52,786 nucleotides of DNA. It comes from Girardia tigrina (taxonomy: Eukaryota). How positions within the stretch are numbered: the stretch's first letter is position 1; each line of letters begins with the position of its first letter. Position numbers and translations under genes: made by a program. Under the pieces are notes generated by a model. That model was not told the origin of the DNA. It was given only the letters and a program-made list of their open reading frames with translations, and ran no database searches. This document shows positions 1,852 through 52,345 of the stretch, piece by piece. The stretch is taken from NCBI GenBank assembly GCA_001938485.1, contig MQRK01215037.1, positions 28,754-81,539 on the forward strand, in the 5' to 3' direction.

Positions 1852-2403
1852 TTTTAAGATTATAAAAGTTTCGACATAATTATAAGTAAAACTGTTCCTT
1901 GATTTAGGTCAAGGGTTGATAAACAGTCGATCTCGGACTGTGTGGTAGTAATGTACAACAAAAAAATTACCGTAGTAAAAATTGTAAAAATTAAATGTAT
2001 TGATATAAATTATGAAGATGAATACCCTGGAAAAAGCGAATTAAGAAAAGGAAAAGCTTAAGTATTGCAAAGTCAATTAGCAAGATAGCAGCTATTATCT
2101 CTGTGGTGTACGTAACAATCCATGTTGATAAATTAAGCTCATATGCGATCTCTTTAGGTTTGGAAAATTATAAAAAATTTTATTAGGATGGTGAAATTTT
2201 TAAGGAGGCTTAACTTGAGGAAATGGAGAACTCAGATTATACTTACTGGTCAATGCAACATTGAAAAGTTTTTTTTGAAATAAACAATATTAATCAAGAA
2301 TTTATGAAATGATTTTCAAATCTCAATCATTTTCAAACTATCCTAAAAACGAGTTTGAGGGTAGCAGTTTATTAGAATAAAAACGTTTTTTAAACGAAAT
2401 ATC

Positions 2404-3520
2404 CCTTAGTAAAGAGTACTACTTTTATTAGAGAATTTAGTTCTTTCAAATAATAAATTAACAATTTTTATTTGGTTTCTTGTTCCTCATAACTACAAAA
2501 ATTATCGTCATCATATAAACAATCAGTCAGTTTTTGGCAAATATCATCATTTTCTTCGTTTAATTCCTCATCAGTCGATTCAATTTCATCAATAATCTCA
2601 AGTTCTGATGCGTTGATTTTTTCATTGTAAAAATTAAAGGTTGTTTTCTTGAAACCCTTGAAGATGAGGGATATGTAACATATACCCATACTTTTGATAT
2701 CAAATCGTATGACGCATGCTTAATATTGCCTTATTTGATGTACTCCTTGTATCCGTTAATTATCCAATTCTCCCATTGTTTGCGTAACTATCTTTTAAAT
2801 GACTTGTTAACAATTAGATATAAAACTTGGAGATTCTTTGACAAACTTCCCTGAATAATTGAAATAAAAGTTTCATGGGCTTTAAAACGTGATTTTACTG
2901 TGTCAGTCTTGTGGTCAGGAGCAGCATCAAACGTAAATAAAGATTTAAATTATTGCGATTTATGCAGACGATTTCTTGACACAAAAGAGTTTCTGTTGAG
3001 TTCATACAAAACTTTTCATTGGCTGAGACTTAAATGCTTTTTAGATGCTTGCCAGAAGGAACTGTTTAGCGAGGAAATATTACATAAGCCCGTAGTTTTG
3101 AGCCATCTGCTGTAACACAAAGCACATTAGTAACGCGACACTTTACAGCAACAGTTATGACTATTCGAATATCTTGAGTACCTTTTGGTCCATTGTATAG
3201 TTTGTCGATATATTAAACGTTATCAGCACTTCATATATGTTACCGATTTGATTGAGAGTATAGCCATCCTTATGTTTGGTTACAAATTCAACGAAATTCT
3301 TCATTTTTACCTGTCAATCTTCTAGTAGTTACTGGTCAACTGAGGTTACAGCTTCCCGGACAATATCATTTTGTACTTTGAACTTTTTCAGCTCACTTGG
3401 AGATCTTATGAAGTCATGAAGTTCATAAACAAAACTTGACTTTCTGCTTGTTAAAGAATTGCAGATACAGATAATTGAATTGACTTTTTACGTTGATTGA
3501 GAATCCATGTCTTCAGATGA
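2404..3520 (-). mobile_element. pogo/Tigger transposase pseudogene (DDE_1 domain to acidic C-terminus)
   Basis: Minus-strand peptides NQIGNIYEV, VLCVTADGSKLRAYVIF, LFTFDAAPDHKTDTVKSRF, NLQVLYLIVNKSFKR*LRKQWENW and FKGFKK plus an acidic tail (2468..2689). Subterminal motif CCTTAGTAAAGAGTAC occurs at 2404 and again at ~4789. Confidence 0.8.
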
Positions 3521-3581
3521 GTTTCAAGATCTTACTTACCATTTTACTGATCTTACTCTCGGTGATAATTTAACTTTTTTG

Positions 3582-4161
3582 TTAGGGTTCAATCGAAATA
3601 TTTCTACTTGTTTTTTTCCATCGAATAATCTGATTTATATGTACTCGATAATGTTCTTCTGGCATTGTGGAGTGGGCGCCACATCGTCTACTTGAGACCT
3701 TGGCTGGCCCGATCGTCGTAAATCGATCCTGGGAATTGGATCGAGAGAAACTGCTGAAAAAAAATAATAGCCTACCGGTTTCGGATGGCGTTGGGATATA
3801 ATGGGGGGCCGCCATCTTGCCCGATAGCTCCGGAATGATGTCGATGCGATTTGAGAGCGAACGAACTGAGGCGCGATGATAGCACGAGGAAATCGAATTC
3901 CTTGCCGTTGGCGCCGTCGATATGATACGCAGATTTATCGAGACAGATATTCGATATTGTTGATATCAATGGATAGAAATGGTGCAACAAATTCGAATGG
4001 TTCTTCGAGATCAATAATCTCTCGAGCATTTTCTGTGACGGGCTCTCGGGCAAACTGATGTCGACGATGTGAGTCTTGGGGTCCGGTGAGTTGTCGAACA
4101 GTTTTGTGAGAAAATCGAAACAGTTTTCGACGCATAAATCCTCTAATGATCTGATATGCAT
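3582..4161 (-). pseudogene. Orphan 5' fragment of a gene with an N-terminal BC-box/VHL-box-like motif (ZER1/ZYG11-like Cullin-2 adaptor?)
   Basis: GC-richer island. ORF starts MHIRSLEDLCVENCFDFL...IVDISLPES, matching the SLxxLCxxxCxxxL BC-box followed by an LP cullin-box motif. A possible 22-nt GT-AG intron (3754-3775) joins the two ORFs in frame. No downstream LRR/ARM exons are visible. Confidence 0.45.
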
Positions 4162-4919
4162 TTGGAGATATATGAATATATAATATCGAGATTGAGAAAG
4201 AGAGAGAGATAGGTATATATAAATAGAGGTTGTGGTAAAAAAACTTCAAGTAAAAAATGCCAGAATGAGATAAAAAGAAAATAATCGAAAAATATTGAAA
4301 ATGTTTATTTCATTAAAAAAATTCGAATTAATCCATCGGAAAGAGAATTATTTACATTATTTAAACAAAATTAATTTAATTTATTGATCCACTTTATTTT
4401 TGAATCCCATTATAAAGGAGCAACAGTAAAAACTGGGATAAAAGGTTTTTTTTTGTGAAAATTAATTATTGGTAAAAATTTTTATAATTTATTATACACA
4501 TAAATTATTTTCGTATGTGGAAATTCACGGGAAAAAAATTCGTTGATTAATGGTCACTACAGGCATAGTCGATTGTATCCAACTTAAATCGCAATGTATA
4601 AGTATTTCGTTTTTTACCCGGCATGATTATTGATTAAAGATTTATACTAATTAAATCATTGATTTAATACTTTTGATGGTTAAGAAATTCAATTTTATTC
4701 TTTGATAATGTATTACTCTAGTAAAGATTACTAGCTTGTATAGTTAAAGAAAAAAATTTAGCATCCAAAAATGTTTATTAAGCTACTACCTTAGTAAAGA
4801 GTACCACCTTCAAATGTTATTTTAGGGTATTTTTTGAATTTATTTTATTTCCATTATATAATTCATGCAGATTAAGTATTTTCTAATTTTTGGATTAATC
4901 TTCATTTATTCTGAATATT

Positions 4920-5730
4920 CTGTAACGTAGACAACAGAAGATAGAGTTTTCTTGTTTTTTCTAGGTAAACGACCGTTTCATCCATTGCAACGATTTCCGA
5001 CAGCTGATATTTATTAAAATCAATATTATCAATAAATTTCTTGTACTCAAGAGCACGCTTAATTATTTCAGAGTCTTCAATTTTAAATAATGTTGTTGAA
5101 CATCTAATGCTAAGATTATAAGTTTCGAAAAATCGGTCTCACTAATGTTGCGATGCTTTAAATTCATCAGAAGAAATGTTATATTATATTGCGAGATTAA
5201 TCGCAAACTTTTGAACATCTGATCTTCGGACTACAAAATTTGATTCTCTTCTGAACAAGATCCAATTAAATAATTCTTCTTCTAAATCATTAAAATGAAC
5301 TTTTTCCCTTATCCTATTTTTCTTCTATCATCGAGACCCAGTAAATTCTGCTGCAGATTTGTTTCATACTTTGCTCGCCATTTGCTCACACGTCTCAGAT
5401 CTAATTTCCTTTCCTTACAATATTCCGTTAAATTTCTGTTGCGAGACTCCTCAACGACATCCACTTTATATTTTACTGTGTAACCTTTTCTTTTTTGGTT
5501 CATGAAGGGATGAAAAATGATAAATTCAAAATTACTTTTCAAAACAAATTTTGTATAACAATTTTTAAAATTTACATAATTTTTTTATTTTTGAAATTAT
5601 CAAATAAAATATTTTTGAAAAATGTAAGGTCTTATATTAATGGATGTCTTATAATAATTCTCACAAAAATAGTTTTTAAATTTTGGACTAGGTCTTATAC
5701 GGGGGATGTCTTATATTTGGAGAAACACGG
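4920..5730 (-). mobile_element. 5' half of a pogo (POGK-like) transposon
   Basis: 5' TIR TA|CCGTGTTTCTCCAAATATAAGAC at 5730. Brinker-like DBD MNQKRKGYTVKYKVDVVEE, CENP-B HTH LEEELFNWILFRRE and first catalytic motif IVAMDET, with stops. Confidence 0.8.
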
Positions 5731-8331: not shown

Positions 8332-8479
8332 TATGTTTTTCACTGCAAACATCATAATTACTATTTTTAAAAAGTTTTTATTCGTACATTTTCCCTTGAC
8401 CAAATAATTTTTTGTATCCTTTAAATAATATTTCTGCCATTAAAATAATTTTATAATTTTTTTCATATAAAATTCTTAC

Positions 8480-8881
8480 CATCATAAGCACTGTCTTTAT
8501 AAATTGGAAATGAATGTCTTCGATGTGGATTTATAATAATTAGACCCGTCATAACTCCGACTCTTTTATTTTTGTACGAAGTATATTTGTAACGAAAAGT
8601 TGGTGAATATCCATGATATCTTGACCATGACGAATATCTAGACGATACTCCTATTCGACCATACGATCCACTTCGATATCCGGAACTACTTCGAGAACTT
8701 GATCCAATTCGGATATTAACACTACTACGAGAATCGCCAATTCGACTACCACTACTACTTCGATAACTTGAACCACTTCGGCTACCACTGCTACTTCGAT
8801 AACCTCCACTACTACTACTACGAGAGCCTCCACCACGACTCCCACCACCACGACTCCCTCGAGAATCAATATTACTGAACC
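8480..8881 (-). CDS. Shisa-like/STMC6 gene, copy B, exon 2 (Gly/Ser/Arg/Tyr low-complexity region)
   Basis: TTAACAG acceptor, GTAAG donor, phase 1-1, 402 nt open: (G)FSNIDSRGSRGGGSRGGGSRSSSSGGYRSSSG...RYKYTSYKNKRVGVMTGLIIINPHRRHSFPIYKDSAYD. Paralogous to 50494-50799. Confidence 0.9.
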
Positions 8882-9112
8882 CTGTTAAATTTTTTCAAGA
8901 TATTATCGTGAACAATATTCAGGAACAATTTTAAATTAATCTAATTATCATAGAATTTCATATTGATAATTTTAGGAAATAACTACTGTATTGATACTTA
9001 ATTACTAAAAAATTAAAATTATCTTTAAATAAATATTAAAATACTTAAATACCTTGTTTAAATAATATTTAAATTAATTTTTGTTTTTAATATTGAAGCC
9101 AAAAAGTGCTAC

Positions 9113-11922: not shown

Positions 11923-13369
11923 TTAGCATAAACGTTCTTCGACAACCTTTTGCGCAAGATTTGTTGCTACTTCATTTCCTTCCTTACCCAAATAAGGTTT
12001 CATTCCACACACAAAGCTTGTATCATTGCAACACATTGCAAAAAATTTTAAGCCATCTTTCGAGGGCTTCATTGGCATATATTGTTTGAAAACACATCGC
12101 CCTCTAAAAGAAACCAATTGCTCATCAATTGTTACAGAATGAGATGGCTTATAATATTTTGGCAGCTGTTTGACAAATAGGTCATAAACATCTTTTATGG
12201 GTGAAAATTTGTCATTTCGGAGAAGAAAACTCCTGCTATCCTTCTCATCAAATCGAAACATTGCATTGAGTTGCTTGAATCTTTTCAACGACATAGTTTT
12301 ACGAAAAATAGAGCGGCCCATTTCTGTGCTCCAAAGGCTCAGAAGTGACTCATAATTGGAGCGAAATACTTCAGCCAAAATGGATAGACCAATAAATGTT
12401 TGTATTTCATCATAGGTTGTCAAATTCTAATTATTCTTCGTTTTCAGACCCTCTGAATTCGTATGTTTGACAATGGTTTCAATCATTTCTTTTGTTACAA
12501 ACAGACCGAATGCGTCTGATATACCAGTAATCTTTCTTTGGGTTTCAGCAGTTGGCCCATATTTGACATGCATTATGATATGAGTCATTGTCTGTCGAAC
12601 ATTCGGTGGTTCTCTACTCCACACCTCTTCATTTTTGCTGAATAGCGTTTGTTCAGATTGGGAAGTTTCATCACTGCTATCTTCACTTTCGGCAGCATCA
12701 CTCTCACTTTCACCACCATTTACGACTTCATGAATCTCATTTTTTGGAAGATCCGTGTCCTCTTCACTTTCGCTACTCTCATCCTCGATGGAATCTTCAT
12801 CGTCATCTTTATACAGCTCTTCACCATAGAGCTTATGGGTGGCTGTGATCGCAGCTTGCCTTTTAATCCGATTCAAGGACTGAAATAAATAAAATACAAT
12901 GTAAGTAAATGAAAATTTACGAATTTCGAATAAGGTAAGATAGCCGTATTTCGAACAGGGCTCAAATTTTGAACGATTAAAATAGCAGAGTCCTGAAGAT
13001 GAGTAATGCTTGGTGACTTGATTACCTAATCCTGATTGAAGATAAGCAGCGCCTTATTGTAGTTATTTTAATAAATTACTGTAAATATTCGCATGAATGA
13101 ATCATCATCTTATTAGTTAGATATGTTTATAATGCATTAAATTATAACCAGGGGTCATGGAAGTGGAACCTAAGTGCGATATTTTTATAAAATTAACTCT
13201 CTCATCATACAAATAAAATAAATTCGGCATTATCAGCGAGATTTATCTTCTTCTTTATGTCACAAAAAATATCACAGAAAACCAGAGTCGAGCAATATTC
13301 CATTTTTGGGCAATACCCTTTTAAAATATCCCTGGGGGTTATACGCTGACCACAGGGATCCTCTAAGGG
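11923..13369 (-). mobile_element. piggyBac transposon, 3'-truncated, with PGBD4-like transposase pseudogene
   Basis: TTAA|CCCTTAGAGGATCCC end at 13369. ORFs 12427..12876 and 11923..12423 are separated by one in-frame stop. Motif TIDEQLVSFRGRCVFKQYMPMKPSK. Confidence 0.9.
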
Positions 13370-18928: not shown

Positions 18929-19289
18929 TGTGGTGTTCAAAAAAATCATTATAAAGAAAAATTCAAACTATTAAATGAATAAACAAAAATTAATGTTTTT
19001 GTTTTACTAAACAAAGTGGCAAACAAATTCAAAAAAATGAGAAATATGGAATCCACCACGACCAAAAGCAAAAGCACAGCCAGCAACTTCAGCAAACACT
19101 CAGTCGTCAAATCAAATATCCCCAAACAATACACGAGTTTTCAATTCAATGATCATTCCGATAGATACCCCTATTTTGCCGATTCGGTTCGTATTCTCAT
19201 GTCATGTATCAATGTATTTTATGCTCGTTCTATTTGTTTTTTCTTCCCGTTCAAACGATGGAAGTTGGTGGTGCAAACTGCACACGCCA
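18929..19289 (+). repeat. 5' LTR (361 bp)
   Basis: Begins TGTGGTG and ends CACGCCA 3 nt before the PBS. Its first ~214 bp recur at 24385-24598 with about 6 mismatches by eye. Confidence 0.9.
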
Positions 19290-19292
19290 AAT

Positions 19293-19310
19293 TGGTGTCA
19301 GAAGTGGGAT
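19293..19310 (+). promoter_or_regulatory. Primer-binding site (tRNA-Leu type)
   Basis: TGGTGTCAGAAGTGGGAT is complementary to the tRNA-Leu 3' end ATCCCACTTCTGACACCA. Confidence 0.9.
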
Positions 19311-19354
19311 CTTCCCACCACAATCGCAGACCGATCTCAAATGATTCGTCGCCA

Positions 19355-21026
19355 ATGGGAGCTGTTAGCGAAGCTGAGCAAGTCAGACACGTAAATTTTT
19401 GTCTACCCACTTTCTTATCCACGTGTTTCTTTCATTTAATCGGTGGATGTGTCTTATCTCATACCACTTTCCTCTCTTCTCGTGTTATCTTCCATTTCAT
19501 TATCATTATGATTTTATATCTATATTTTGCTGTGCCACATAATGATTTTATTAAAACTTTTAAAATTATTTTTCGTAAATGTGTATTGAATCTCACAAAA
19601 AGACACAACATCTCAAGTGACACTTCACCACCACACAAAGACTACGCAGCTCTCGGAGAACACAACACGAACACAACCAATATACTCTACCCCGATCAGG
19701 AACAAGAGTCATGGGACATACGCATCACCGTCACGGGCGACACACATCTTTACGAGACAGTCAACATTAATGAAACAATTTCACTAACACTGGATCACAT
19801 CGCCCACACAACCGGCCATATGGTCACACTTTATCACGGGTTTAAGCCGCTCAGACCTCAGATAACGTGGTCAGATTATAACATTGTGAACGACACAACA
19901 CTACGAAGTCACGTCCCTCTGGCACGGGGAAAACCTACAAAAAGGATACCGCAACGACACCCCCCCCATAATAGCACACATGCCAAGGCGAACGCGAACG
20001 CAACTGAAACTACAGAACCTGTTGGGTCAGATTCATCGTCCGACACAAACGGATCGCAACCAATACAGATTGACAAACAAGAAACAAGCATGACGCAGAT
20101 TTCGAACCTCTCGTCACAGCCTCCGCCAGTGATGCCCACGACTAAAAGTTTCATCCCATACTTCGAGGACGAAACTGGATCAACACAACTCTGGTTAAAG
20201 GTCATGGATTCCAGACTAAGATCCATGCACATTAACAGGCAACTGGACCTCTTCCACGAGTTGTTGGTATCCTTTCCATCAGAGCAATTAACAACCATCC
20301 AGAAATACTTGCCGCAATTACTGGCACACGACACACCATACGAGGAGTTACAACGAGGTTAGTTCAACGAAATACTCCATCCTTCGAAGAGTGCTTTGAC
20401 GAATGCTTCCGACCCATGCCAATCGGCGACTCGAAACCCACTGAGTTTCTCAGAACTGTCACCAGGAAACTCAACAATGTGAATCCACTGCTCACCACAG
20501 GCGATAGAGGAAACGACAAGCTCAAGTAATTTCTAATGCGCGCACTACCTGCCACGCACCGTGCTGTTCTTTTAACGTCCCCACACCTTCCGGTACAAGA
20601 CCTTGCCGAGATTGCCGACCGCATTACCGATGCAGTTGGCCACAACTCCTGTCCCCCATATGCCCCGATACAGTCCATTCAAACATCAGCACAAGCTCAT
20701 CCCGCAGCAATCGTACACCAACCCCAACCGATCGACGACATTGCTACACTCACCGCGCGATAGCTTTCCTTGAGGCGAGAGACAATAGCTCCAAGGGTGC
20801 TTACCGACGACAACCACGGCCTCAATCAACCACTACGAGAACTCATGACACACAATGTTATTTCCACCGCAGATTCGAAGCGCTTGCTAAAAAATGCCAA
20901 CCGAAATGTTCATTTCCTTGTGCTCGCGATCAACTAACGGCTACGGACACATGCGTTTGGCACTCACAATTCGGGACGGCAGCGACCCGTTGTGCGCCTG
21001 GCTAGCATCTGAACAAAAAAAACTGA
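19355..21026 (+). pseudogene. gag: ORF1: hydrophobic leader, ubiquitin-like domain, linker, Gag (CsRn1-like)
   Basis: First in-frame ATG after the PBS is at 19355 and the frame stays open to 20362. The Gag core PYFEDETGSTQLWLKVMDSRL...PYEEL continues through frameshifts and stops to CYFHRRFEALAKKCQPKC and CVWHSQFGTAATRCAPG*, ending AAA AAC TGA. Confidence 0.85.
19712..19930 (+). other. Divergent ubiquitin-like domain in frame with Gag
   Basis: WDIRITVTGDTHLYETVNINETISLTLDHIAHTTGHMVTLYHGFKPLRPQITWSDYNIVNDTTLRSHVPLARG aligns to ubiquitin with one 3-aa gap and 19 identities: I3, V17, T22, I23, I30, G35, L43, K48, L50, T55, S57-I61 (SDYNI), T66, L67, L73, G76. Confidence 0.75.
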
Positions 21027-21077
21027 GACCGCCACTCATTCGTGCAGCCGATGAGACTCAACATGGCAATTGCTGCA
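21017..21077 (+). promoter_or_regulatory. -1 ribosomal frameshift signal (A AAA AAC plus stem-loop/pseudoknot) at the gag-pol junction
   Basis: Slippery heptamer 21017-21023 sits immediately before the gag TGA, and pol is in the -1 frame. Downstream pairings GCCA/TGGC and CTCAT/ATGAG; loop TGCAGC is complementary to a downstream GCTGCA. Confidence 0.8.
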
Positions 21078-24000
21078 GCGTCTTCACATCAGAGGCACAA
21101 ATCCACAACAATCAACGCACCTCAGCATTCTTTTTAGTTGACACTGGTTCGGCTGTTTCAATTTGGCCACAAAAATTCGTACTGCACCTCACAGAGACCG
21201 ACAGGAAGTTCACAGCAGCCAATGGTACAGCAGTCCGTACTTACGGCACCATCTCCTTAACCTTCTCACTGACGCAGGTGCAGCGATCTTTCCAGTGGGA
21301 GTTCACAGTAGCAGATGTAATCCAGCCTATTCTGGGGGCCGACTTACTGGAACATTTCGAATTCTTAGCAGATTGCAGGATGTACCGACTCATTCTCAAT
21401 CAGGCCACAGCAACGGACTAAGTCAACACAGCGCCGGCGGACACCATCACCACACCAAACAAACGACAAGGGACAGTTCCCAACACACAGTCTCATACGT
21501 TCTCGATCCATGAGCAACACATTCGTGACAAGTTCCCAACGCTGCTTCAAGCACCAAGCAACGACAGCACAACTTGCGTTTCGACCCACGTCATAGCAAC
21601 GACCGACTACCCACCAGTCCATCAGCGAAGACAGGAATTGTTACAAGCGATTCGTGCCCTGGCAGCTGAAGAGTTCAAATAGCTTGAAGAGGCCGGAATA
21701 ATCCGATGTTCCTCTTCCCCATGGGCAGTACACCTGCAAATCTTCAAGAAGAAGGACGGAACCTTGCGAATATGTGGTGACTACAGAGGACTCAACAAGG
21801 TGACCATTATAGACTCGTACCCAATGCCGCTCATTACCGACCGTCTTCAGCGCTTCGTAGGATGCATCGTCTTCTCATCTCTTGATTTGAGCAAAGCGTA
21901 CCATCAGATCCCCATGGACACAAACTCAATTCAGAAGACGGCAGTCACAACACCGTTCGGCCTATACGAATATGTGCGCATGCCCTTTGGGCTACGAAAC
22001 GCTTCACAAACGTTCCAGCGGCACATTGATACGGTACTCAGTGGACTCCCGAATGTAGCCGCGTACGTCGACGACATCATCATCGCGTCGCCGAATCACG
22101 AGCAACACAAAACACATATTACCGCGACACTTGCAAGATTGAGCAAACACAACCTACAGGTAAAACTGCCGAAATGCCACTTTTTTCGACAACAAGTTGA
22201 ATTCCTGGGTCACGTATTATCCGACAAAGGCGTACTACCACTGGAGAGCCGTGTCAAAGCTATCAGAGATTTTCTCCGACCAGTAACAGTCAAGGCACTG
22301 AGAAGCTTCTTGGGGATGATCAATTTCTTTAGACGGTTCATACCGCACATTTCCGACATACTGGCACGCCTTACAGTCCTTTTTTCCGGACCAAAAAGTT
22401 CAGAAATCACCTTGACAACCGAGTCAGAACAGGCGTCTTTTCGAGCCAAAGACGCCTTACAAAAAATCAAATCCCTGCATTTCCCGGACAACAACTTACC
22501 ACTAACATTGACAACGGACGCCTCCAACACGGCGATTGGCGCAGTCTTGATGCAGGTCCGCAACACGCATTCCGAAACCATAGAATTAATTTCTCACAAA
22601 CTGTCACCGGCTCAGACAAGATATTCCGCCTTCAATCGGGAACTGTTAGGCCTTTACATGTCGGTCAAACATTTCGAACATTTCTTGATCGTCAAATCGA
22701 CAGTCGTTTACACGGACCACAAACAGCATCTGCATTATCTGACCATGAAATATTCTTCCCCGCGGCAACAACATCACATGAGTTATCTGTCACAATTTAA
22801 CATCGAATTACACTATATCAGAAGAGCTGAAAACGTTGTCGCAGACTGTTTGTCCAGCGCAGACATATCCAGTCTTGATTTCGAATCCCTCATTACCACT
22901 GAGACCCTAGCACAACACCCACCAACCCAAAAAGATCTCAGCTTTTTCTCCAATCCACCGGTCTCCAAATGGAACATATTCTTTGACACTTAGCTTGCTG
23001 GATCCATCCGACCGATACTTGGACAAGAGCTACACGCACAAGCTTTCCAAGCCGTTCACAACGTCGCTCACCCCGGCAGGAAAGCAACGTACGAGTTGTT
23101 ACGAACTAAAGTCATTTGCCACAGATGCGAAAAGACGTCACACTATGGTGTCGGGCTTGCTTCGACTGTCAACGGGGCCAGGTCACCCGGCACACGAAAC
23201 CACCGACTATAGCCTTTCCTACTGGCAGCAGGTTCGACACAATTCATATGGACCTGGTCGACCCACTTCCTCGGTCAAAAGGATTTTCTTACTTGTTCAC
23301 AATAATTGACAGAAACACACGCTAGACTGAAGCATTCCCTCTCTGAACAACCGCCAGCGAGACCATAGCAGACATATTGGTGAACCACTGGATATCCAGA
23401 TTTGACATTCCCAAATGGATCATTACCGACCATGGTCTGCAATTCGAATCCGCACTTCTTACGGATTTAACCAAAAGACTGGGTATCCAAAAGGTGAGGA
23501 CAACTGCTTACCACCCCCAAACCAACGGTCTCGTGGAACGCTTCTACAGGGCACTAAAAAACTCGTTCAGAGCGCTAGGCCAAACAACAGCCTGGGCAGA
23601 CCAATTACCTTTCGTCCTTCTTGCTTGGCGTAACATCCCCGACGGCAAACACGGGACTTCGCCAGCACAACTGCTTTTCGGGTCAAACACTTCCTTCGTA
23701 AACGAACTGTTTTTCAACGAAGCCCCCGGGAACAACAGCCAACTGGCGGCAGCTCAGACGCTCTTCATGGAAACCGACAGAACGCCCAAACATCATGACA
23801 CACAAAAGATTTTCGTTCCAAAAGACCTGGCAACTGCAAAATTCGTCTGACTGCAGAAAGAAACCACCACGTCTTTAGAATGTCGTTACACTGGGCCACA
23901 CAGACTCATCTCCATCGACTCAAGCAACAACACAACAAGAATCACCCTCCACGGTGCAGAACGCACCGTCAACGTATGCAAACTTAAACTCTGCATACAC

Positions 24001-24216
24001 TTGCAGGATTACACACCCGGTAACAACGATACAGCACCGAACAACAACAGTCTGCCAGACACCGGTGATCACACATGCACATTCCCCACAACATCCACAG
24101 ACGTTACACCAAGCCAACGGAATCAATCCATACCAACACAGCCAACGAAGACCACACTACCCCGATCTAGACGTCGTCCAGCACGCTACAGAGAACAAAC
24201 CCAAACACTTACATAG
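21023..24216 (+). pseudogene. pol: pol: protease, reverse transcriptase, RNase H, integrase
   Basis: FLVDTGS protease; LDLSKAYHQ, MPFGL and YVDD RT; TTDAS and ENVVADCLS RNase H; H..HPG/CFDC zinc finger and HMDLV, ITDHG, NGLVERF integrase. Broken into several ORFs. Confidence 0.95.
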
Positions 24217-24384
24217 CACACATAACACTGAAAAATCATCATCTGTACTATACCACATCTGTTGTATTTTTTTTGTTTTTTGTGGTTTTCCGCTCTCCCG
24301 CCGATCGGCAGTTACACTCAGCGACAACTCTCATAACTCTGTGACCTCCACGCCAGTGCTCCATACTTCCTGTGGGGGGGCTGA

Positions 24385-24598
24385 TGTGGTGTTCAAAAAA
24401 CTCATTATAAAGAAAAATTCAACAAATTAAATGAATAAACAAAAATTAATGTTTTTGTTTTACTAAACAAAGTGGCAAACAAATTCAAAAAAATGAGAAA
24501 TATGGAATCCACCACGACCAAAAGCAAAAGCATAGCTAGCAACTTCAGCAAACACTCAGTCGTCAAATCAAATATCCCCAAACAATACACGAGTTTTC
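24385..24598 (+). repeat. 3' LTR (truncated)
   Basis: Follows a G-rich PPT. Matches the 5' LTR up to GAGTTTTC, then abuts an unrelated gag. Confidence 0.9.
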
Positions 24599-37634: not shown

Positions 37635-39312
37635 TTGTAAATCCCTAGTATAAGCTGCAGCTAATACGTACATAAAGGAAACATTTTTGAATCGCAGTTA
37701 ATATGATTTGCAGCTTATACAACTAAAAAACAATTCAAATTGAAGATAAGATTATTTATCTATTTAAATTTTCAACATCACCACTCCTCAAAACCATCAC
37801 ACTTTTCATTGTCAATAAAAGTGAAATTTTGTAGTAATTCTACAAGGTCATGAAAAACTGCAATGTTTGGATCAGATTCATTCAAATTCACTTCATTTTC
37901 TTCAATTTCAAGAACATCGTCGTTTTCACCAAATGAAACACGAAAACCATTCAAAATAGTGAAAAGGTTAACCTCATCCCAAGAGGAGACAATCCATTTG
38001 AAAATGGTATTACTTTCAGCTACTTTCATATTTCCGGACTTAGTATGTTTGATGTTCTCATAATCTTTAATGATCCAATCTCCAAATTCTTGCGCAATTT
38101 TGACTTGAACGAACGGTTAACAGTAAGATCTAATGGCTGCACCTTTGATATCAATCCGGTAGGTATGAAAGCTACTTTGGATTCCTTCTTAATTTTATCA
38201 AGTGCAGTAGCGATAAGATGTGAGCGATGCATATCAAATAAAAGCAATGATGGTACTTTTGGATCCTGGTTCTATGGTGTCTTTGGAGGCGATGTAATTC
38301 GACTCTTCCATACTTTCTTGAGCCATAACTCAAGAGTTTCATGATTCATCCAACCAGATCCATTAGCTGCAATAACAAGCTTTGATTCATGAATGCAAGT
38401 CTTTTGAAGTTTCTTTGTGCTCAAAATAACAAAGGCGGAAGTTTACTACTATTTTTGAGAACACGTAGATTGATGGTTAAACGTTTTCTTCATATTTGGT
38501 AGTTTTAATTCGTACCTCATGGGCAGCTTTAGCCTCAACTGTGGAGCTTAAAGGCATGTCACATTGAAAGGACACTTCATCAAAATTACCGATTTGATTA
38601 TCGGGCAAATCCTTCTATAAATCTGAGATGATGCTTCTAAACTTTGTCACCTGAAATTCCCAATCTTTCGGCAATTGTTGCTTCGTGGTAGGCCGTCGAA
38701 AACAAATATTCTTGCGTTTCATTAAATTATCAGTCCATTGAGAGCTCGCGAAAAATCCTTCAATCTTCATTTCTTTGACAATTGCTTGTGCCTGTAAACG
38801 ATTTCGAACAACCGACACTTGAAGTTCTCGTTCACGTTGAATTAGGATCCATTCGTGTAATTTCGTTTCCAATTCCGGATATCTAGCGTTACCATCACGC
38901 AAAGATCTTCGATTTGGATTCATTGCTTTGATAACAGACTCTCGGGCGATCCATCGTCGAATAACAGTTTCATTAATATCATATCGTCTTGCAGCTTCCC
39001 GTATGCTTCCTAACTGACGAGCTAATTCAATAATCTCTCTTTCTTTGCTAAACTAAAATATCTTCGTTGTTTCTTTTGTTTTTGTTCAGAATCGTTATCC
39101 ATTTTAATCATGGATTCAAAACAGTGCAATAAAAAATGTAAACAATATAAAAAATTAAAACAAAATGGTTTTTGTCACTGTGACATTTGTTTTTTAATGA
39201 TAGGTTGCTGATTTTAAAATCATGTATCATCAACGCAAATGGTACAGCTTATACGACTAAAAATACACTTTCATAAAAACATTCTCTGCAGCTTATGCTC
39301 GGGATTTTACAG
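37635..39312 (-). mobile_element. pogo (POGK-like) transposon with both TIRs, decayed transposase
   Basis: TA|TTGTAAATCCCTAGTATAAGCTGCAG ... CTGCAGCTTATGCTCGGGATTTTACAG|TA. ATG at 39102; CENP-B HTH (YPELETKLHEWI), GNFDE, LLFDMHRSH and VQPLDLTVNRSFK. Confidence 0.92.
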
Positions 39313-44930: not shown

Positions 44931-45707
44931 GAAAAAGTGATTAATTACAATTTATATAGTGGAAAAAAATATTAAATCATATGTATCAAAAACATGTTTT
45001 TAAAATATGTTATTTAATAAACGTTAATATGATTCTATGAATCACTTTGTATGTTTAAGCATGATTTCTAATACTTTCTTAACAAAGCTACACAAATATC
45101 CTTTCCTAATTTGTGTCAAAATGAATTTAAATCCCTTAGAAATCTTTATTGTGATCTAAATGATTACTCTTACATTTTTAAATATGGCTTGTTTTGCGAT
45201 GTTTTGACTTTTCTTATAAAAAAGTCGAATTGTTGAAAAGTTCGAAAACGGTGATTTTTCCAAACGCAATTTCAAATTCTCAATCAAGCTGCATTACAAC
45301 AAATAAGCGTTAAATCGATCTTTTTAATTCGGTAGTCTATTTTGTAATATTATTTTCAATCGGTTTCATTATTTGGATATGAATCTGTCGTTTTGATTAG
45401 TGATGGCGAAATTGTAATTCGTAAATTTGTCAGAATTTTTTGTGTTCAAATTGATTTAAAATATTTTATTCATATAATTGAACTATTTTTTATGTTTTAT
45501 ATAAAATTTCAAAAATTTGTTTTAATTCAAAAACATTAGAAATTGTATGAATTGGTTTAATCGAATTTAATCGAATTGTTATAAAAATTTGTTTTTTGTT
45601 TTGTCGAATAAATGAATAAACCTTTTGAACGTGCGAAATTTGTTCTTGATTGAAATTCACCAATTTTTTATAATCAATTTTTTATTTGAAACAATTTAAT
45701 TGACGAA

Positions 45708-46343
45708 ATGGTTGAAAAAGTAATCAAAGGTAGTTCGACGGTTATGGTGTGTGAAATGAAAAAGTTAATAAACAATCAATTGATGAGTGATGTGCAATTT
45801 GAAATCGGTCCCGAGCGGAAATTGTTTTACGGTCACAAATGCATTTTAACTGCGCGCTGTGAAATATTCAAATCGATGTTCGTCGATCAAATGAATCGCA
45901 AAGACTCCCCAAGTCCGTTAGTGTTACAAGAAATGAAGCCGAATATTTGCAAATATTTACTCGAATATCTCTACACAAATCATATTAAATTAGAAAAATC
46001 TTCCGTTAATGAAACAATTGAATTACTCGCGATTACGATTGAACTAGAACTCGACAATGGGAAAATCGTCGAGAATTATTGTTCGTATTTCTACGAAAAT
46101 CATCCGATCAATGAAAATTGTCGATTGGCTCGCGAATCGCGACCGAGAATCGATCGAAGGAAATCGGTGACTGACAGAAGAGATTGGAAGTGTCAGTTGT
46201 GTTTTAGTCGATCGATGGTGAGAGAAGGAAATAATGATCGCTACTGTTGCCAATATCACACCGAGTTGCCGGATGATGTGATCGATCGTTCTCATGGGCC
46301 ATTTGAGGGCCCGATAAGTGTGTGGCGATCTTGTGTTTCTTGA
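45708..46343 (+). pseudogene. BTB/POZ-domain ORF (BTBD19-like N-terminus) fused to an unrelated Cys-rich segment; lies antisense in an intron of copy A
   Basis: LINNQLMSDVQFEIGPERKLFYGHKCILTARCEIFKSMF...LLEYLYTN is a clear BTB domain resembling BTBD19. No recognisable BACK domain follows; the frame continues past one stop (PNRASVFTCQPCCKK). Confidence 0.8.
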
Positions 46344-46839
46344 CCGAATCGAGCGTCGGTGTTTACGTGTCAGCCGTGCTGTAAGAAAACGTTTCTTTCC
46401 GATGTCGGCGCTTATTATCAGAGTCAGGTTATTTACAAGCTGGAATCAGAAAAATAAACAAATGTTACTACAGAATTCGACCCAGTTCATGGTGAAATAT
46501 ATGGGTCTTCCAAAGTCGATGGCAGTAAATGCTATCAATGGGTTCCAAATCCTATTGGAGTTTCAACGGTGGCTTTAATTACCGAAGAATTGGTTATCGA
46601 TAAAAACGAACTGCTAATTCTATATCTGCGGCGAAAATAGAGTGAAAAGGAAAAATTCTCAAACCGACTATCGAAATCGAAGGCAACTATAAGATAATGA
46701 TGAAAACCATTCCCAAAAAGGCGCTCCAACGTCCCCAAAGCCGGCAATAAATTACTTTTTATCCCCCGACCCAAATACTGTCACTCAGAACCAGAGTGCC
46801 ACAGCCACGATATCGCTGCGCTCTCTCTCGCACCATTTC

Positions 46840-46857
46840 TGGTAGCAGAGCGTGGTT
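46840..46857 (+). promoter_or_regulatory. Primer-binding site (initiator tRNA-Met type)
   Basis: TGGTAGCAGAGCGTGGTT is complementary to a metazoan tRNAi-Met-like 3' end (…CTCTGCTACCA), 4 nt after a CA dinucleotide. Confidence 0.85.
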
Positions 46858-47137
46858 GCGGCGCTCTGGGGTTGGTGGGTGGTTGTTGGCATCGGGGTTT
46901 GATATTAAAATTCGAAGCGTCCTCCACCTGATGGAGAAGGCTTATGATATGTTTGTGTGTTCACAGTGGATGAAAGAATCGAATGAAATAAAATTAATGC
47001 CCCTGTGGTTGTTGAATAAATTCGCGGATTGTTTGTGTCAGCATTGCGGGATGATTGTGAGAATTTCGAGGATTGGGTCGTCCCGAATACAATACCGGCC
47101 AAGCACCAGGGTGCGACTTAATCTTCCAGCTTGTTGG

Positions 47138-47340
47138 TATGAAATGTGTGTGGATGTTCTAGTTCTCTAGTTCTGGTTTATGAGCCAAGTGAGACCATAA
47201 AGAGTTTGAAGGAGGAAATACATTATGAACATCAAAGGTTAATATTTGCAGGGAAACAGTTACGAAACGAACGAAAGTTAAAGGATTATAATATCCAAAA
47301 AGAATCGACGCTCCATTTGGTTTTAAGTTTGAGAGGCGGG
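47138..47340 (+). other. Ubiquitin domain ending LRGG, read through into the Gag region
   Basis: [53 protein letters not shown]: 30/36 identity to ubiquitin residues 41-76, a ~6-aa deletion after I30 and a frameshift near 47160-47170. No stop after GG. Confidence 0.95.
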
Positions 47341-48074
47341 TGCGATCTGGACGTTGTAGAGAAAGAGAGTTTGGATGATCAGTGGGACGATGGAAAGCGA
47401 AAGAAGATCCTTGATGAGAAGAAGTTCGAGAATGAAGATCCGAAACAACATTGGGATTCAGGAATGAAAAAAGACAATGAGTTGAAAGAGAATGTTGATT
47501 CGGATCAGAAATCTAGCGTTAGAAGAACTTCGAATCAAGTCCGAGACCAGAATGAGTTACATGCAATATGAGAGAGAGTTTGATAGATTAATAATAGAGC
47601 TAATATTGGTAGGGAAAGAATTGACACAAAGCGAATAAGTTTGCAAGTTAATAATTGAGAAGGAAGAAATTAAGATGAAGCATAAAAAATGTGAGGAATT
47701 ACATGAGAATGAAATTAAGCAGCAATTTCCAGATTCGTTCTCAAGTAGATACATTTACCTCAAACTACTAGAGGTACCTAAGTTTAGCGGCCAGTGGAAA
47801 GATTATGGATATTGGCGCGCGTCCGTCAAAGTCTGTCTAGAAGACAACAAAATGTTGGAGGCGGATAAATATATATTGTTACGACGAAGTTTATTCGGAG
47901 AGGTATTGTCTTTGATCGCAGATGTTGGAATTCATGAAGGAACGTTCAAGACAGCTCTCGAACTTTTGGAAAAGGCCTATGATAGAGACAAGCGGAGCGT
48001 CTCAAGCGATGAAAAGCGTCGGGCTGAATTTCAAACTTCTCCAAAGTTAGAAAGTTGTAAAGAATCTTCAAACT

Positions 48075-50335
48075 GTAAAGAATTGATCTTCCTTTATCGG
48101 AGGAAGTTTACCATTTTTACGAAATTTATTAATTTTCATAAATTGGGGCCCTTTGAGAACATTAATCAATTTATTCACATAATCCTACTTATTTAAAAAG
48201 ACTAGACAATTCCCTTTATCAAATTTACATGCATTAATATTTTTCTTAGATAATTTTTATTAAATCAAAATCTTTGTTATTTAAATTAAAATTTCAATCA
48301 AAGATTGAAACAATGTATGGCTATTATTTATCTAATATTTCTTATTTTCATAGTTTTGATTTCGGATATTTTAAGCATGTTTTGAATAAAAATACTTCAG
48401 ATTATGTAAATAAAAATTTTAAGCAAAATAACAAAGATTTTTTGATTTTAAAAATTCTATCTAAGAAAAATATTAATACATGTAAATTTGATAAAGGGAA
48501 TGGTCTAGACGTTTTAAATAAGGAGGATTATGTGAATAAAATGATTGATGTTCTCAAAGGGCCCCAATTTATGAAAATTAATAAATTTCATAAAAATGGT
48601 AAACTTCCTTTGATAAAAGATGATGAATTTTGTACTTCTTTATTATCAAATCTTAATAAAAACAGGGTCATTTTTGTGATAATCTTGATTTGCATCCAAT
48701 TGGTTCTCAACCAGCCAAAATATATGGACTTCTGAAGGTACATAAAAATGGAATACCTTTAAGACCGGTTTTATCGATGATTAGAACGTCTCAATATATG
48801 GTAGCGAAATATATAGATTCAAAATTAAAACCTTTATTATCATCTGGATTTTTGTGTCGTGATAGATTTGAATTTGGTGATTTCATTTCTACATATAAAG
48901 TACAGAATGAAGGTGAATTTATGGTTTCTTTTGACATCTCTAGTTTATTTAAAAATGTTCTTTTGGTTGAAACTTTGAATTTGTGTTGTGATCTATGGAA
49001 AAATAATCATTCAGAACATCATATTGTCGACGAGGTTGGGTTTCGTGAGTTATTAAGTTTTGCAACATCAAATGTTCATTTTCTTTTTAATAATGAGTGG
49101 TATAAGCAAACTGATGGGGTTGCTATGAGTTCACCGTTAGCACCAACGTTAGCTTCTGTTTTTCTTTAAGATTGAAAATAAAATTAAATTGTTTGATGGA
49201 AATCAACCTTTAGTATATAAAACATACTTTGATGATATATTTCTAGTTTTTAAAAATCAGGCTGATGTACTTTCATTTTTAATTTTATGAATTCGTTACA
49301 TTCAAATGTTACTTTTACAAATGAAAATGAAAGGAATGGAGTCTTACCTTTTCTTTATCTTTTGGTTGAAAGAAAATCTCTTAGTTACGAGACTGGAATT
49401 TATAGGAAGCAAACTGATACAGGTTTGTATACTTCACCAGACAGTTTTTGTGAACTTAAGTATAAAAGAAACACGATTAAAGGTTTAATTTATCGCTCCT
49501 GGTTGTTGTATTCAACTTTTGTTAAATTTGTAGAAAGTGTTAATAAATTAAGTTCTTTGTTAAATCAGAATTGTTACTCTAAATCTTTTCTAGAAAAATT
49601 AATAAAGGAAACAGTAGATAAAATATTTTTGAAAGATTTTTCGAAAAATCAGAGTTTGGCTTCTCCTGATGGATCTAAGAAAGAAATCGAAGGATCATTA
49701 GATATTAATAATATGCCTAAATATTGTTTATTTTTACCTTATTCTGAAGGATTTAAAAACTTTAAAATGCATTGTTAAAAACAACTAACAATGAATTAAA
49801 TTTAAAAATTATATCACGATCTCATAAAATTCCAAATATGTACAGTAATAAAGATCTATTACACCTTTAACACTTTGTTCGGATATTGTTTATGAATATA
49901 AATGTAATGGGTGCGATGCCACTTACATTGGAGAGACTGCCCGTCATCTCTGTAAAAGAATGCAAGAACATGGTAGAAAAGAGAGTAAGAGTAATATTGT
50001 AGAACACAGGAAAAAATGTAAATTTGATGTTAATTTTGAAAATTTCAAAATTCTGTGTAAGTATTTTGACAGTTATTTGGAGAGTGTCGTGTGAAGCATT
50101 GTTAATTAGGTCACGTTGCCTTATCATTGTTCAATCGGCAGTCTCAACCAGTTTATTGAGAATTTTTGATTAGCATGATTTCATGCAATCAATTACATAA
50201 TCATCATTTTTGTATTTATATACAGGTGAATTGATTATTAATTAGTGACCTGGAGATGACGGTAGATCCTTCGAAATATATTGTCTATAAATATATTTTT
50301 TTAATGGATGAGTGTTGTTTTTATTGAATAAACAT
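48075..50335 (+). mobile_element. Penelope-like element (RT plus GIY-YIG), decayed, with 3' pseudo-LTR
   Basis: DKGN, KIYGLLKVHKNGIPLRPVLS, MVSFDISSLF, QTDGVAMSSPLAP, YFDD, YRKQTDTGLY and VYEYKCNGCDATYIGETARHLCKRMQEH. 5' boundary approximate. Confidence 0.95.
50247..50285 (+). ncRNA. Minimal hammerhead ribozyme motif in the Penelope pseudo-LTR (core variant CUGGAGA)
   Basis: GAC-CTGGAGA-T-GACGG TAGAT CCTTC-GAAA-TATA-TT-GTC with palindromic stem III. One core substitution probably inactivates it. Confidence 0.65.
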
Positions 50336-50493
50336 TACAATTTTGATGAGATAAAAAGTAAAACTTGGATTAACGGCAAGACCTTTTTACAATAGTTTAA
50401 AATAAATTCCCTTAACCGAAAATATTTTTTTAGATTATTTAAATAATATTTATATTATTCACATTAATATATATGTTTCAATAAAATTCTTAC

Positions 50494-50799
50494 CGTCATA
50501 AGCACTGTCTTTATACATGTGAAATGAATGCCGATGCTGAGGACTTATGATAATAAGACCCATCATAATTCCGGTTCTTTTAGTTCCATACGAGGTATAT
50601 TTGTAACGAAAACTTGGGGAATATCCATGAGATCTTGACCATGAAGAATATCTGGACGATACTCCTATTCTATATGATCCACCTCGATATCCGGAACTAC
50701 TTCGAGAACTTGATCCAACTCGGATACTAACACTAGTACGGGAACCTCCACTTCGACTTCCACCACCACGACTCCCTCGAGAATCAATATTACTAAACC
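50494..50799 (-). CDS. Shisa-like/STMC6 gene, copy A, Gly/Ser/Arg/Tyr-rich exon (signal-peptide exon not found; probably right of the window)
   Basis: TTTACAG acceptor, GTAAG donor, 306 nt open: (G)FSNIDSRGSRGGGSRSGGSRTSVSIRVGSSSRSSSGYRGGSY...KRTGIMMGLIIISPQHRHSFHMYKDSAYD. Confidence 0.9.
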
Positions 50800-51389
50800 C
50801 TGTAAATTTTTTTTCAACATGTTATGATGTATATTAAAAACATGATTGTAAATTTTAGGTATAAAAAATAATTCAAAATTCATACTTCAAGAAAAGTATG
50901 ATAAATTGATCCGTAAGACACTAAAACGTCGAAAAAAACATCGAAAAAAACTTCGAACGTTACATTAAATGCTTAAAAAAATTTTTTCCACAAAATATTC
51001 GAAGAAACTAAGTTAATAACGTGGTTAGAGGGAAAATCCACAAATACTTAATCCAAAAATAATCTAATTAAAAATGATCTTACTGAACTTTATTTTATGT
51101 TTTAATTTATATTTCTAGGTTGTTTGGACAAACCTAAAAAATTTAACCGATATTCGAAACATTAAACTATGAACGAAAAGTTGATTATATTTTGAAAAAA
51201 CAGTTGTATTATATATGCAGATTTATTTTAATTTACTCCAACTTTAACTGGGATTTTTCTCTTAATCAACCTCACAACCCTTCCGTTATAGTTTTGTAGT
51301 AACCGCAAATTAATCAACAGATTTTCCCCGCGAAGTTTCTAATTCTTAAACAATTGAAATTGGGTCATCTTTGTAAAAATTCCTCACAC

Positions 51390-52186: not shown

Positions 52187-52345
52187 TATATTTGTAACGA
52201 AAACTTGGGAAATATCCATGAGATCTTAACCATGAAAAATATCTGGACGATACTCCTATTCTTTATGATCCTCGATATCCGGAAATACAAGAACTTGATC
52301 CAATTCGGATACTAACACTAGTACGGAAACCTCCCCTTCGACTTC
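52187..52345 (-). pseudogene. Degenerate partial duplicate of the copy A low-complexity exon
   Basis: Matches ~50596-50760 with small deletions and lacks both splice sites. Confidence 0.85.

Follow-up and report, generated by a model that had tools for sequence, protein, structure and literature searches.

The locus raises the question of why a retrotransposon should carry ubiquitin ahead of its Gag, and whether this is an accident of one copy or a property of a lineage. The window, which is the whole stretch of DNA that was analysed (52,786 nucleotides), forms the end of contig C215037 in the Girardia tigrina assembly (1.43 Gb, AT-rich, 255,254 contigs). Matches to host genes agree with an invertebrate animal: for a host KCTD gene, two matches were at 76–80%, while those named as molluscs, annelids, nemerteans, and arthropods were at ~41–49% across most of the gene. 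This assembly is gappy, with N gaps and local duplications (L097, L099, L100, and L104 contain gaps), so that long frames and chimeras are partly suspect and some of them may be assembly products. Open frames of 800–1,700 aa were rejected as intact elements, being mostly N gaps. The element in the window was composed as follows:

Positions 45190–46835, plus strand: 5′ LTR, 1,646 bp, TG...CA, multi-copy; copies begin at 45189/45190 and finish at 46833–46837
Positions 45690–46343, plus strand: captured host BTB-domain gene fragment within the LTR, first ATG 45708, its end broken in the window copy (Pfam BTB, E = 1.2e-14)
Positions 46750–46835, plus strand: GC-rich U5 end, common to otherwise unrelated LTRs, open in frame entering the primer-binding site
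Positions 46840–46857, plus strand: primer-binding site (PBS), 18 nt, 4 nt past the LTR end, tRNA-Met
Positions 46858–47164, plus strand: coding leader with ATG 46931 and CLCQHC; 1-bp loss at 46893, 124-bp loss at 47164
Positions 47165–47340, plus strand: ubiquitin remnant ending LSLRGG, N-terminus gone, 18-bp loss at 47207 (PF00240, E = 8e-15)
Positions 47341–48087, plus strand: Gag N-terminal helical region and first half of DUF1759 (~47783–48004); frameshift at ~47470–47490, stop at 47636–47638
Positions 48075–48635, no strand: inverted-repeat insertion with 196-nt arms that are 90% complementary, foreign to the element, at its break-off point

The sequence-only reading had described a BEL/Pao element with a tRNA-Met-type PBS. 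The identity was borne out by the Gag and pol of relatives, and the 18 nt of the PBS were those at the 3′ end of the host tRNA-Met(CAT) genes in L114, which we take to be initiator tRNA genes from three G-C pairs in the anticodon stem and the A in the T-loop. The PBS plus two bases had 276 matches in the genome, and the control had 0. At ~1498 on the minus strand of L113, an LTR end was followed by a PBS extending far into tRNA sequence, where ARAGORN called no gene. Both the ATG at 46931 and CLCQHC were present in the window leader, and the window frame 46704–46931 crossed the LTR end and the PBS without a stop. The leader had been put at ~70 aa; in a sister copy it spans ~108 codons (PBS to GG 642 nt in L046/L226). 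The break suspected near 47165 is real, but it is a 124-bp loss, relative to four sisters, that removed the leader end and the first ubiquitin strand.

The Pfam ubiquitin match sits in the window frame 47143–47568. The remnant keeps I44, K48, K63, H68, and V70 and has Ser at residue 72, as had been read, but "near-canonical" was too generous a term, with just 40/76 residues identical to ubiquitin. The six-residue gap was not family-wide: it reflects a loss of 18 bp in the window copy, which 0/4 sisters share. Over the last 41 codons, comparison with host ubiquitin gave pN of 0.14–0.17 and pS of ~1. The Gag frameshift that had been called exists, but it lies at ~47470–47490 rather than 47570, so that part of the supposed acidic coiled-coil region is out-of-frame text. 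The in-frame stop and the death of the copy were both upheld. The DUF1759-type Gag was matched in frame 47639–48073 (E = 5.8e-4), but in the window only at half length (profile positions 1–75 of 148) and below the cut-off (20.3 against 25.4 bits). The relatives L098, L099, L101, and L112 scored above it, and the window Gag was 41% identical to that of L101 (tblastn, E = 5e-48).

Likeness to the sister copies stops at 48087. Neither pol nor a 3′ LTR was found in the window copy, whose contig ends where the window ends, and the expected BEL pol was present downstream in relatives but not in the window. L101 encodes ubiquitin, DUF1759, aspartyl protease, Peptidase_A17, and integrase; L097 has ubiquitin, Gag, and RT in one gapped frame, and PR, RT, Peptidase_A17, and rve were found in L097/L101. 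L227, which is 79–86% identical to the window leader and ubiquitin, contains Gag-PR-RT-RH and part of IN (tblastn). The pol order in L097, L101, and the sister L227 was PR, RT, Peptidase_A17/RNase H, and integrase. Pol was absent from contig C75585 of the window's closest sister and from the contig of L088, where Gag continues into a charged tail. The 3′ part of the window copy groups with copies whose Gag stops mid-DUF1759, and not with the pol-bearing L227 that its leader and ubiquitin resemble, which marks it as mosaic. The window copy is, to judge from its sequence, a dead, mosaic BEL/Pao element, and it was probably non-autonomous. CCCH zinc fingers occur at the nucleocapsid position in L097, L098, and the outside protein P0002. 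Four loci (L095, L096, L102, and L104) join ubiquitin and a truncated Gag to 400–600 open codons that are charged and coiled-coil-like; these tails are possibly defective-interfering or restriction-type products.

A ubiquitin-frame search of the genome matched in 150 of the 150 candidates scored, out of 1,740. From the fetched loci, 75 distinct junctions of ubiquitin with non-ubiquitin sequence were collected, duplicates being dropped by exact 90-nt identity only. In the 53 that were inspected, the continuations were related Gag N-termini with few exceptions. As had been anticipated, leader, ubiquitin, and Gag share one frame in sister copies; in L225 a single frame, with in-frame stops, runs from U5 to Gag, and L098 has a gap-free frame of 1,118 codons in the order Vac14-U5-PBS-leader-ubiquitin-Gag. 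These junctions indicate that the ubiquitin-Gag fusion is real and family-wide. Ubiquitin as a secondary insertion does not agree with its presence in 4/4 close sisters, many subfamilies, and outside proteins, or with a longest A-run of 3 after the GG. The longest word shared by its flanks was 6–7 nt, and pN was far below pS. A processed ubiquitin pseudogene inserted into the element was likewise rejected (present in sisters, A-run ≤3, pN well below pS, no neutral decay).

Deubiquitinases cut ubiquitin-X fusions where X is a residue other than Pro. The junction ended in GG in 65/75 cases, and the residue after it was non-Pro in 75/75, so the earlier suggestion of a likely cleavable tag is compatible with the sequences. 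That suggestion had been extended to a potential Cys/Arg N-degron exposed on Gag, and to R72S hindering conjugation as a form of E1 evasion. This holds for the letters of the window and of one sister, L088, both of which are dead copies without pol and the only ones with Cys after GG (2/75). Ser follows GG in 63/75 junctions, including the close sisters L225, L226, and L227, while R72 is kept in 64/75 and replaced by Ser in 8/75, seven of these with the window-type LVLS/VLS tail. Because Cys is rare after GG and R72 is mostly kept, the N-degron and E1-evasion ideas fail, and the exposed Cys degron is scarcely credible.

Another explanation would have ubiquitin stay partly on Gag and act in cis, either standing in for a late domain in membrane budding or holding down Gag levels as a degron. 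Engineered Gag-ubiquitin fusions can rescue budding, and the hydrophobic patch and K48 are conserved (K48 in 70/75 and I44 in 60/75 junctions). However, GG-Ser is preserved, and loss of GG would be expected in a fusion that stays uncut, as happened in the upstream remnants: ubiquitin remnants ahead of an intact ubiquitin end in GS (9) or GN (4) and never in GG (n = 13), and these 13 probably share one origin. In addition, no env was found in the loci scanned, and we regard retention as very unlikely. Met1 of ubiquitin is missing in many subfamilies, the window's included, so ubiquitin must be read from upstream.

Intact tandem ubiquitin (GG-MQIF) was considered and rejected as an element feature. 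On the 26 contigs examined, which cover most of the 33 genomic junction matches, Gag never came next: the ending was that of host polyubiquitin in 20, and the other six are cut, gapped, or truncated. An Hsp90 middle-domain fragment lies in frame directly before ubiquitin in L097, L100, L104, L108, and the outside protein P0023, and in the four loci ubiquitin ends LCGG. In the near-canonical subfamily, a short Hsp90/ubiquitin crossover-like remnant precedes ubiquitin. An AlphaFold single-sequence model of ubiquitin with the Gag N-terminus had a mean pLDDT of 48 and was set aside.

The ubiquitins of 12 element copies were compared with two host polyubiquitin units, and silent sites were saturated (pS 0.6–1.1). 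In 7/12, pN was 0.02–0.08, with 68–73 of 74–75 residues identical to the host; in the other five, which include three close sisters of the window, it was 0.17–0.31. Between elements, dN/dS was 0.05–0.27 in 9/12 pairs with a value and 0.47–1.13 in three close pairs. Low pN despite saturated pS argues that the element ubiquitin is translated and under strong purifying selection. With up to 73/75 residues identical to host polyubiquitin, the comparison identifies the moiety as ubiquitin proper, not NEDD8 or SUMO. Near-full conservation of its surface in several subfamilies likely exceeds the need of cleavage alone. The dN/dS of the leader ranged from 0.23 to 1.75 (14 pairs). Between L111 and L109/L098, dS was 0.13–0.19 in leader plus ubiquitin and ~2 in the Gag behind them, which points to module swapping between subfamilies.

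The 5′ LTR with its captured host gene had been missed by the sequence-only reading, and it gives a likelier reason for ubiquitin. Perfect 5-bp target-site duplications (TSDs) flank the solo LTRs L004, L008, L013, and L019, and L003 matches in 4 of 5. The BTB segment of the LTR was covered at 90–100% by 40/40 scored genome matches (105 candidates). A 325-codon frame runs up to the last LTR base in the solo copy L004, and in L011 and L012 the frame likewise has no stop before the LTR end. Neither the protein atlas nor Pfam gave a match for the C-terminal half of this cargo, and a search for its parent BTB gene in the host, with 40 of 105 candidates scored, did not find it. Other ubiquitin-Gag copies match the window LTR only in its last 90–100 bp, and upstream of this shared end they carry pieces of Vac14, PRMT, MAP65, 14-3-3, and RNA-polymerase-N. 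The first 100 of the 276 exact PBS matches yielded 76 fetched and 68 distinct loci, in which 8/43 long frames upstream of the PBS matched Pfam: tubulin (2), ThiF, calcineurin-like phosphatase (2, one with cyclophilin), AD plus SH3, SMC_N, and Ras. The 51 usable loci contained 38 different LTR segments (families). The BTB, Vac14, and PRMT types are multi-copy, and solo LTRs with TSDs were found for BTB and Vac14; the Vac14 copy L121 is a solo LTR of 877 bp.

Alignment of the Vac14 cargo to the host gene in L219 begins ~20 nt before the ATG, thus including 5′ UTR and Met1, and joins U5 in exon 3. Neither GT-AG host intron (57 bp; 4.8 kb with a gap) was present in any of 10 copies, and in public contigs the host Vac14 mRNA was spliced in the same way. 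The lack of host introns indicates that the Vac14 cargo was captured from mRNA. Its dN/dS against the host was 0.24–0.49, a pairwise value with a conserved host gene, uncorrected for transition bias, which cannot show selection on the cargo.

Two classes of LTR-PBS spacer place the leader in different frames, and in both the LTR frame tracks the leader frame. Among the 36 class A loci, an upstream frame open for ≥60 codons was frame A in 20, B in 0, and C in 4; among the 22 class C loci it was C in 15, A in 1, and B in 1. The class frame was open for ≥60 codons in 25/40 loci, against 3.4% in shuffled DNA. A family-level count of 22 against 4 was inflated because stops in U5 are inherited, and it was superseded by a test that excludes U5. 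With counting begun 120 nt before the PBS, 27 of the 38 families were informative: the class frame was longest in 19 and another frame in eight (p = 9e-5 against 1/3), while the remaining 11 had no long frame. From 210 nt upstream, the class frame led in 16 and another in 10 (p = 0.003), the signal being weaker further upstream. In 18/44 PBS loci there was no ubiquitin within ~1 kb, and since some of these have in-frame Hsp90/LRR leaders, in-frame cargo capture may not require ubiquitin. In L188, L204, and others with the spacer TTTCCAAT, the leader holds in-frame Hsp90 and leucine-rich-repeat fragments of >330 codons, with no ubiquitin in view. The RNA data were assembled contigs only, from four runs, of which X1/X2 were presumed to be RNA and X5/X6 gave small shares. 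Public contigs covered U5-PBS-leader-ubiquitin-Gag in pieces; none among them spanned cargo to Gag, and the Vac14 stretch was covered by host-type mRNA only, with no Vac14-LTR variant.

The best model, to which we give a slightly better than even chance, is that deubiquitinases of the host detach Gag-Pol from a captured N-terminal part that varies between elements. The members of this BEL/Pao clade would be read as one long frame, in the order of a host mRNA fragment captured in the LTR, U5, PBS, leader, ubiquitin-GG, and Gag(-Pol). Transcription would start in the 5′ part of the LTR, before the cargo, and the frame conservation suggests that translation proceeds from a captured or leader AUG across the primer site. 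A host deubiquitinase would then cut after GG and leave a Gag with a Ser N-terminus at the position where ordinary BEL Gags begin. Capture may occur by template switching onto co-packaged host mRNAs during minus-strand synthesis over U5. Such switches would be tolerated because ubiquitin separates Gag from everything upstream, making in-frame captures in the LTR and leader harmless to it. The dozens of LTR types, diverse and of spliced origin, that sit on one ubiquitin-Gag chassis would be the outcome.

Ubiquitin-ribosomal-protein fusions provide the pattern for another role, in which a cleavable ubiquitin helps Gag to fold or to be expressed, the short leader is the sole site of translation initiation, and the LTR cargo is a by-product of very frequent template switching. 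The cargo would then be in frame because out-of-frame AUGs block Gag translation or trigger decay. Many subfamilies do have an ATG ~30 codons past the PBS, distantly related pairs have a leader dN/dS close to 1, and the cargo looks degenerate, as in the weak tubulin and cyclophilin scores. However, this account still requires the cargo on the mRNA and its in-frame reading, by which it merges with the deubiquitinase-release model, and the cargo supplies its own start codon (Vac14 Met1 with ~20 nt of 5′ UTR). We consider it unlikely as a separate explanation.

The released cargo-leader-ubiquitin might instead be an effector, either loaded by E1 and conjugated or engaging host complexes as a decoy (cullin-3 adaptors, the Vac14 scaffold, 14-3-3, and PP1). 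It would have a free C-terminal GG; R72, K48, and I44 are retained at the frequencies given above; and in five copies 71–73 of 74–75 residues are those of host ubiquitin despite saturated silent sites. The cargo is rich in regulators, and the low dN/dS of Vac14 would be in keeping with a function, but pairwise values cannot establish selection. The cargo is also an extremely variable mosaic, with 38 segments among 51 loci, and ubiquitin in the window's subfamily has drifted to 41–50 of 74 identities with the host. An effector role thus appears quite unlikely.

Outside the genome, 1.84 billion representative proteins were searched with a Gag profile, which gave at least 150 matches; among the 150 listed, six carry a ubiquitin match and one more begins at a KLKGG tail. 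A search for homologues of Gag only gave one match, P0272, with ubiquitin and DUF1759, bringing the outside proteins with the fusion or its GG end to eight. When part of ubiquitin was included in the query, solely polyubiquitins were among the matches listed (120). The seven proteins from the profile search are metagenome or cluster records, and P0001 may come from the same or a close species. The Gag tree had 43 rows, including the 31 outside proteins that span most of the profile, the others being excluded; it was rooted at the midpoint and contained two long rows. Every ubiquitin-bearing row lay on one side of a branch with 100/100 support, and 20 ubiquitin-less Gags lay opposite. Ubiquitin-less BEL Gags mostly start with Met near the GG position. 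The simplest reading of the tree, in which the root is uncertain, is that one old fusion replaced the initiator Met of Gag. A wider proposal would make ubiquitin an insulator and the clade a standing machine for capturing mRNA 5′ ends, whose elements mass-produce and spread conjugatable host-domain-ubiquitin chimeras in more than one animal species. On this view, translation of each of dozens of LTR types would begin in a different host gene, cross the primer-binding site, and release a cargo-ubiquitin piece with a free GG. We put it forward tentatively, as plausible but somewhat short of probable.

The elements resemble BEL/Pao (Belpaoviridae) in their DUF1759 Gag with Cys-His boxes, PR-RT-RNaseH(Peptidase_A17)-IN order, TG...CA LTRs, 5-bp TSD, and tRNA PBS. 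Unlike described BEL/Pao elements, they have ubiquitin at the Gag N-terminus, a coding PBS and U5, and LTRs with host gene fragments. Ubiquitin-ribosomal protein precursors and the ubiquitin-fusion technique share the LRGG|X junction, which is open to deubiquitinases and gives a defined N-terminus; by comparison, the element ubiquitin is internal, has a variable N-terminal extension, and often lacks Met1. Ubiquitin inserted in pestiviruses is a signal for processing by host proteases. In cytopathogenic BVDV, RNA recombination has placed host ubiquitin immediately before a viral protein, in some cases preceded by further host fragments (PMC13517609). Those insertions are sporadic and in an RNA virus, whereas the present one is old, fixed, selected, and at the Gag start of a retrotransposon clade. 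LTR-mediated retroposition joins partial, spliced, and sometimes multi-gene mRNA pieces to LTR elements, which are re-amplified (PMC5131818). The retrocopies in that paper replace internal ORFs between the LTRs (PMC5131818), whereas here the cargo is inside the LTR, in frame with Gag, and also in pol-bearing relatives. The giant planarian Ty3/Gypsy element Burro/GYPSM1 encodes a polyprotein into which host domains, a Ubi2/SUMO-like motif among them, have been captured (PMC6431247). It belongs to another superfamily, its motif is internal after Gag, and the relevant section describes no cleavable N-terminal ubiquitin or LTR cargo (PMC6431247). The word "ubiquitin" occurs 0 times in the BEL/Pao superfamily paper (PMC3118150). 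Titles and the starts of abstracts contained no published ubiquitin-Gag BEL/Pao element or in-frame LTR cargo; Repbase, Dfam, and subscription journals lay outside this search, and a repeat-library entry may note the domain. Within that scope, the separate parts have precedents in pestivirus insertions, LTR retroposition, and Burro domains, and the combination was not found.

If the model is true, the clade would offer an example from nature, under long selection, of a retrotransposon whose Gag N-terminus is defined by host deubiquitinases and not by the protease of the element. The model would also account for the tolerance of heavy host-gene capture in the LTR upstream of gag, where captured AUGs should normally block translation of Gag. 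Solo LTRs spread pieces from the N-termini of essential genes through the genome, with 40 or more scored matches for each of the BTB and Vac14 types. This bears on the duplication of gene fragments, small-RNA cross-silencing of host genes, and mis-annotation as host gene families.

Other elements were also observed. Decayed RT and GIY-YIG frames (PF01541, E = 0.0014) occupy window positions 48660–50094, and this element is presumably Penelope-like by its architecture; the stretch 49050–50123 is 92% identical to one in L225. A separate Ty3/Gypsy-type element with RVT_1/RNase H lies at 18929–24598, its 214-bp LTRs being 97% identical. DNA-transposon remnants with DDE_Tnp_1_7 and HTH_Tnp_Tc5 were located at 11926–12426 and 38618–39052. 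Three related minus-strand copies encoding Gly/Ser/Arg-rich repeats (8450–8895, 50464–50813, and 52187–52345) are possibly a small gene family or repeat. In L092, positions 1878–5552 contain integrase-, ATPase-, and capsid-like frames that, by eye, are typical of Polinton/Maverick elements.
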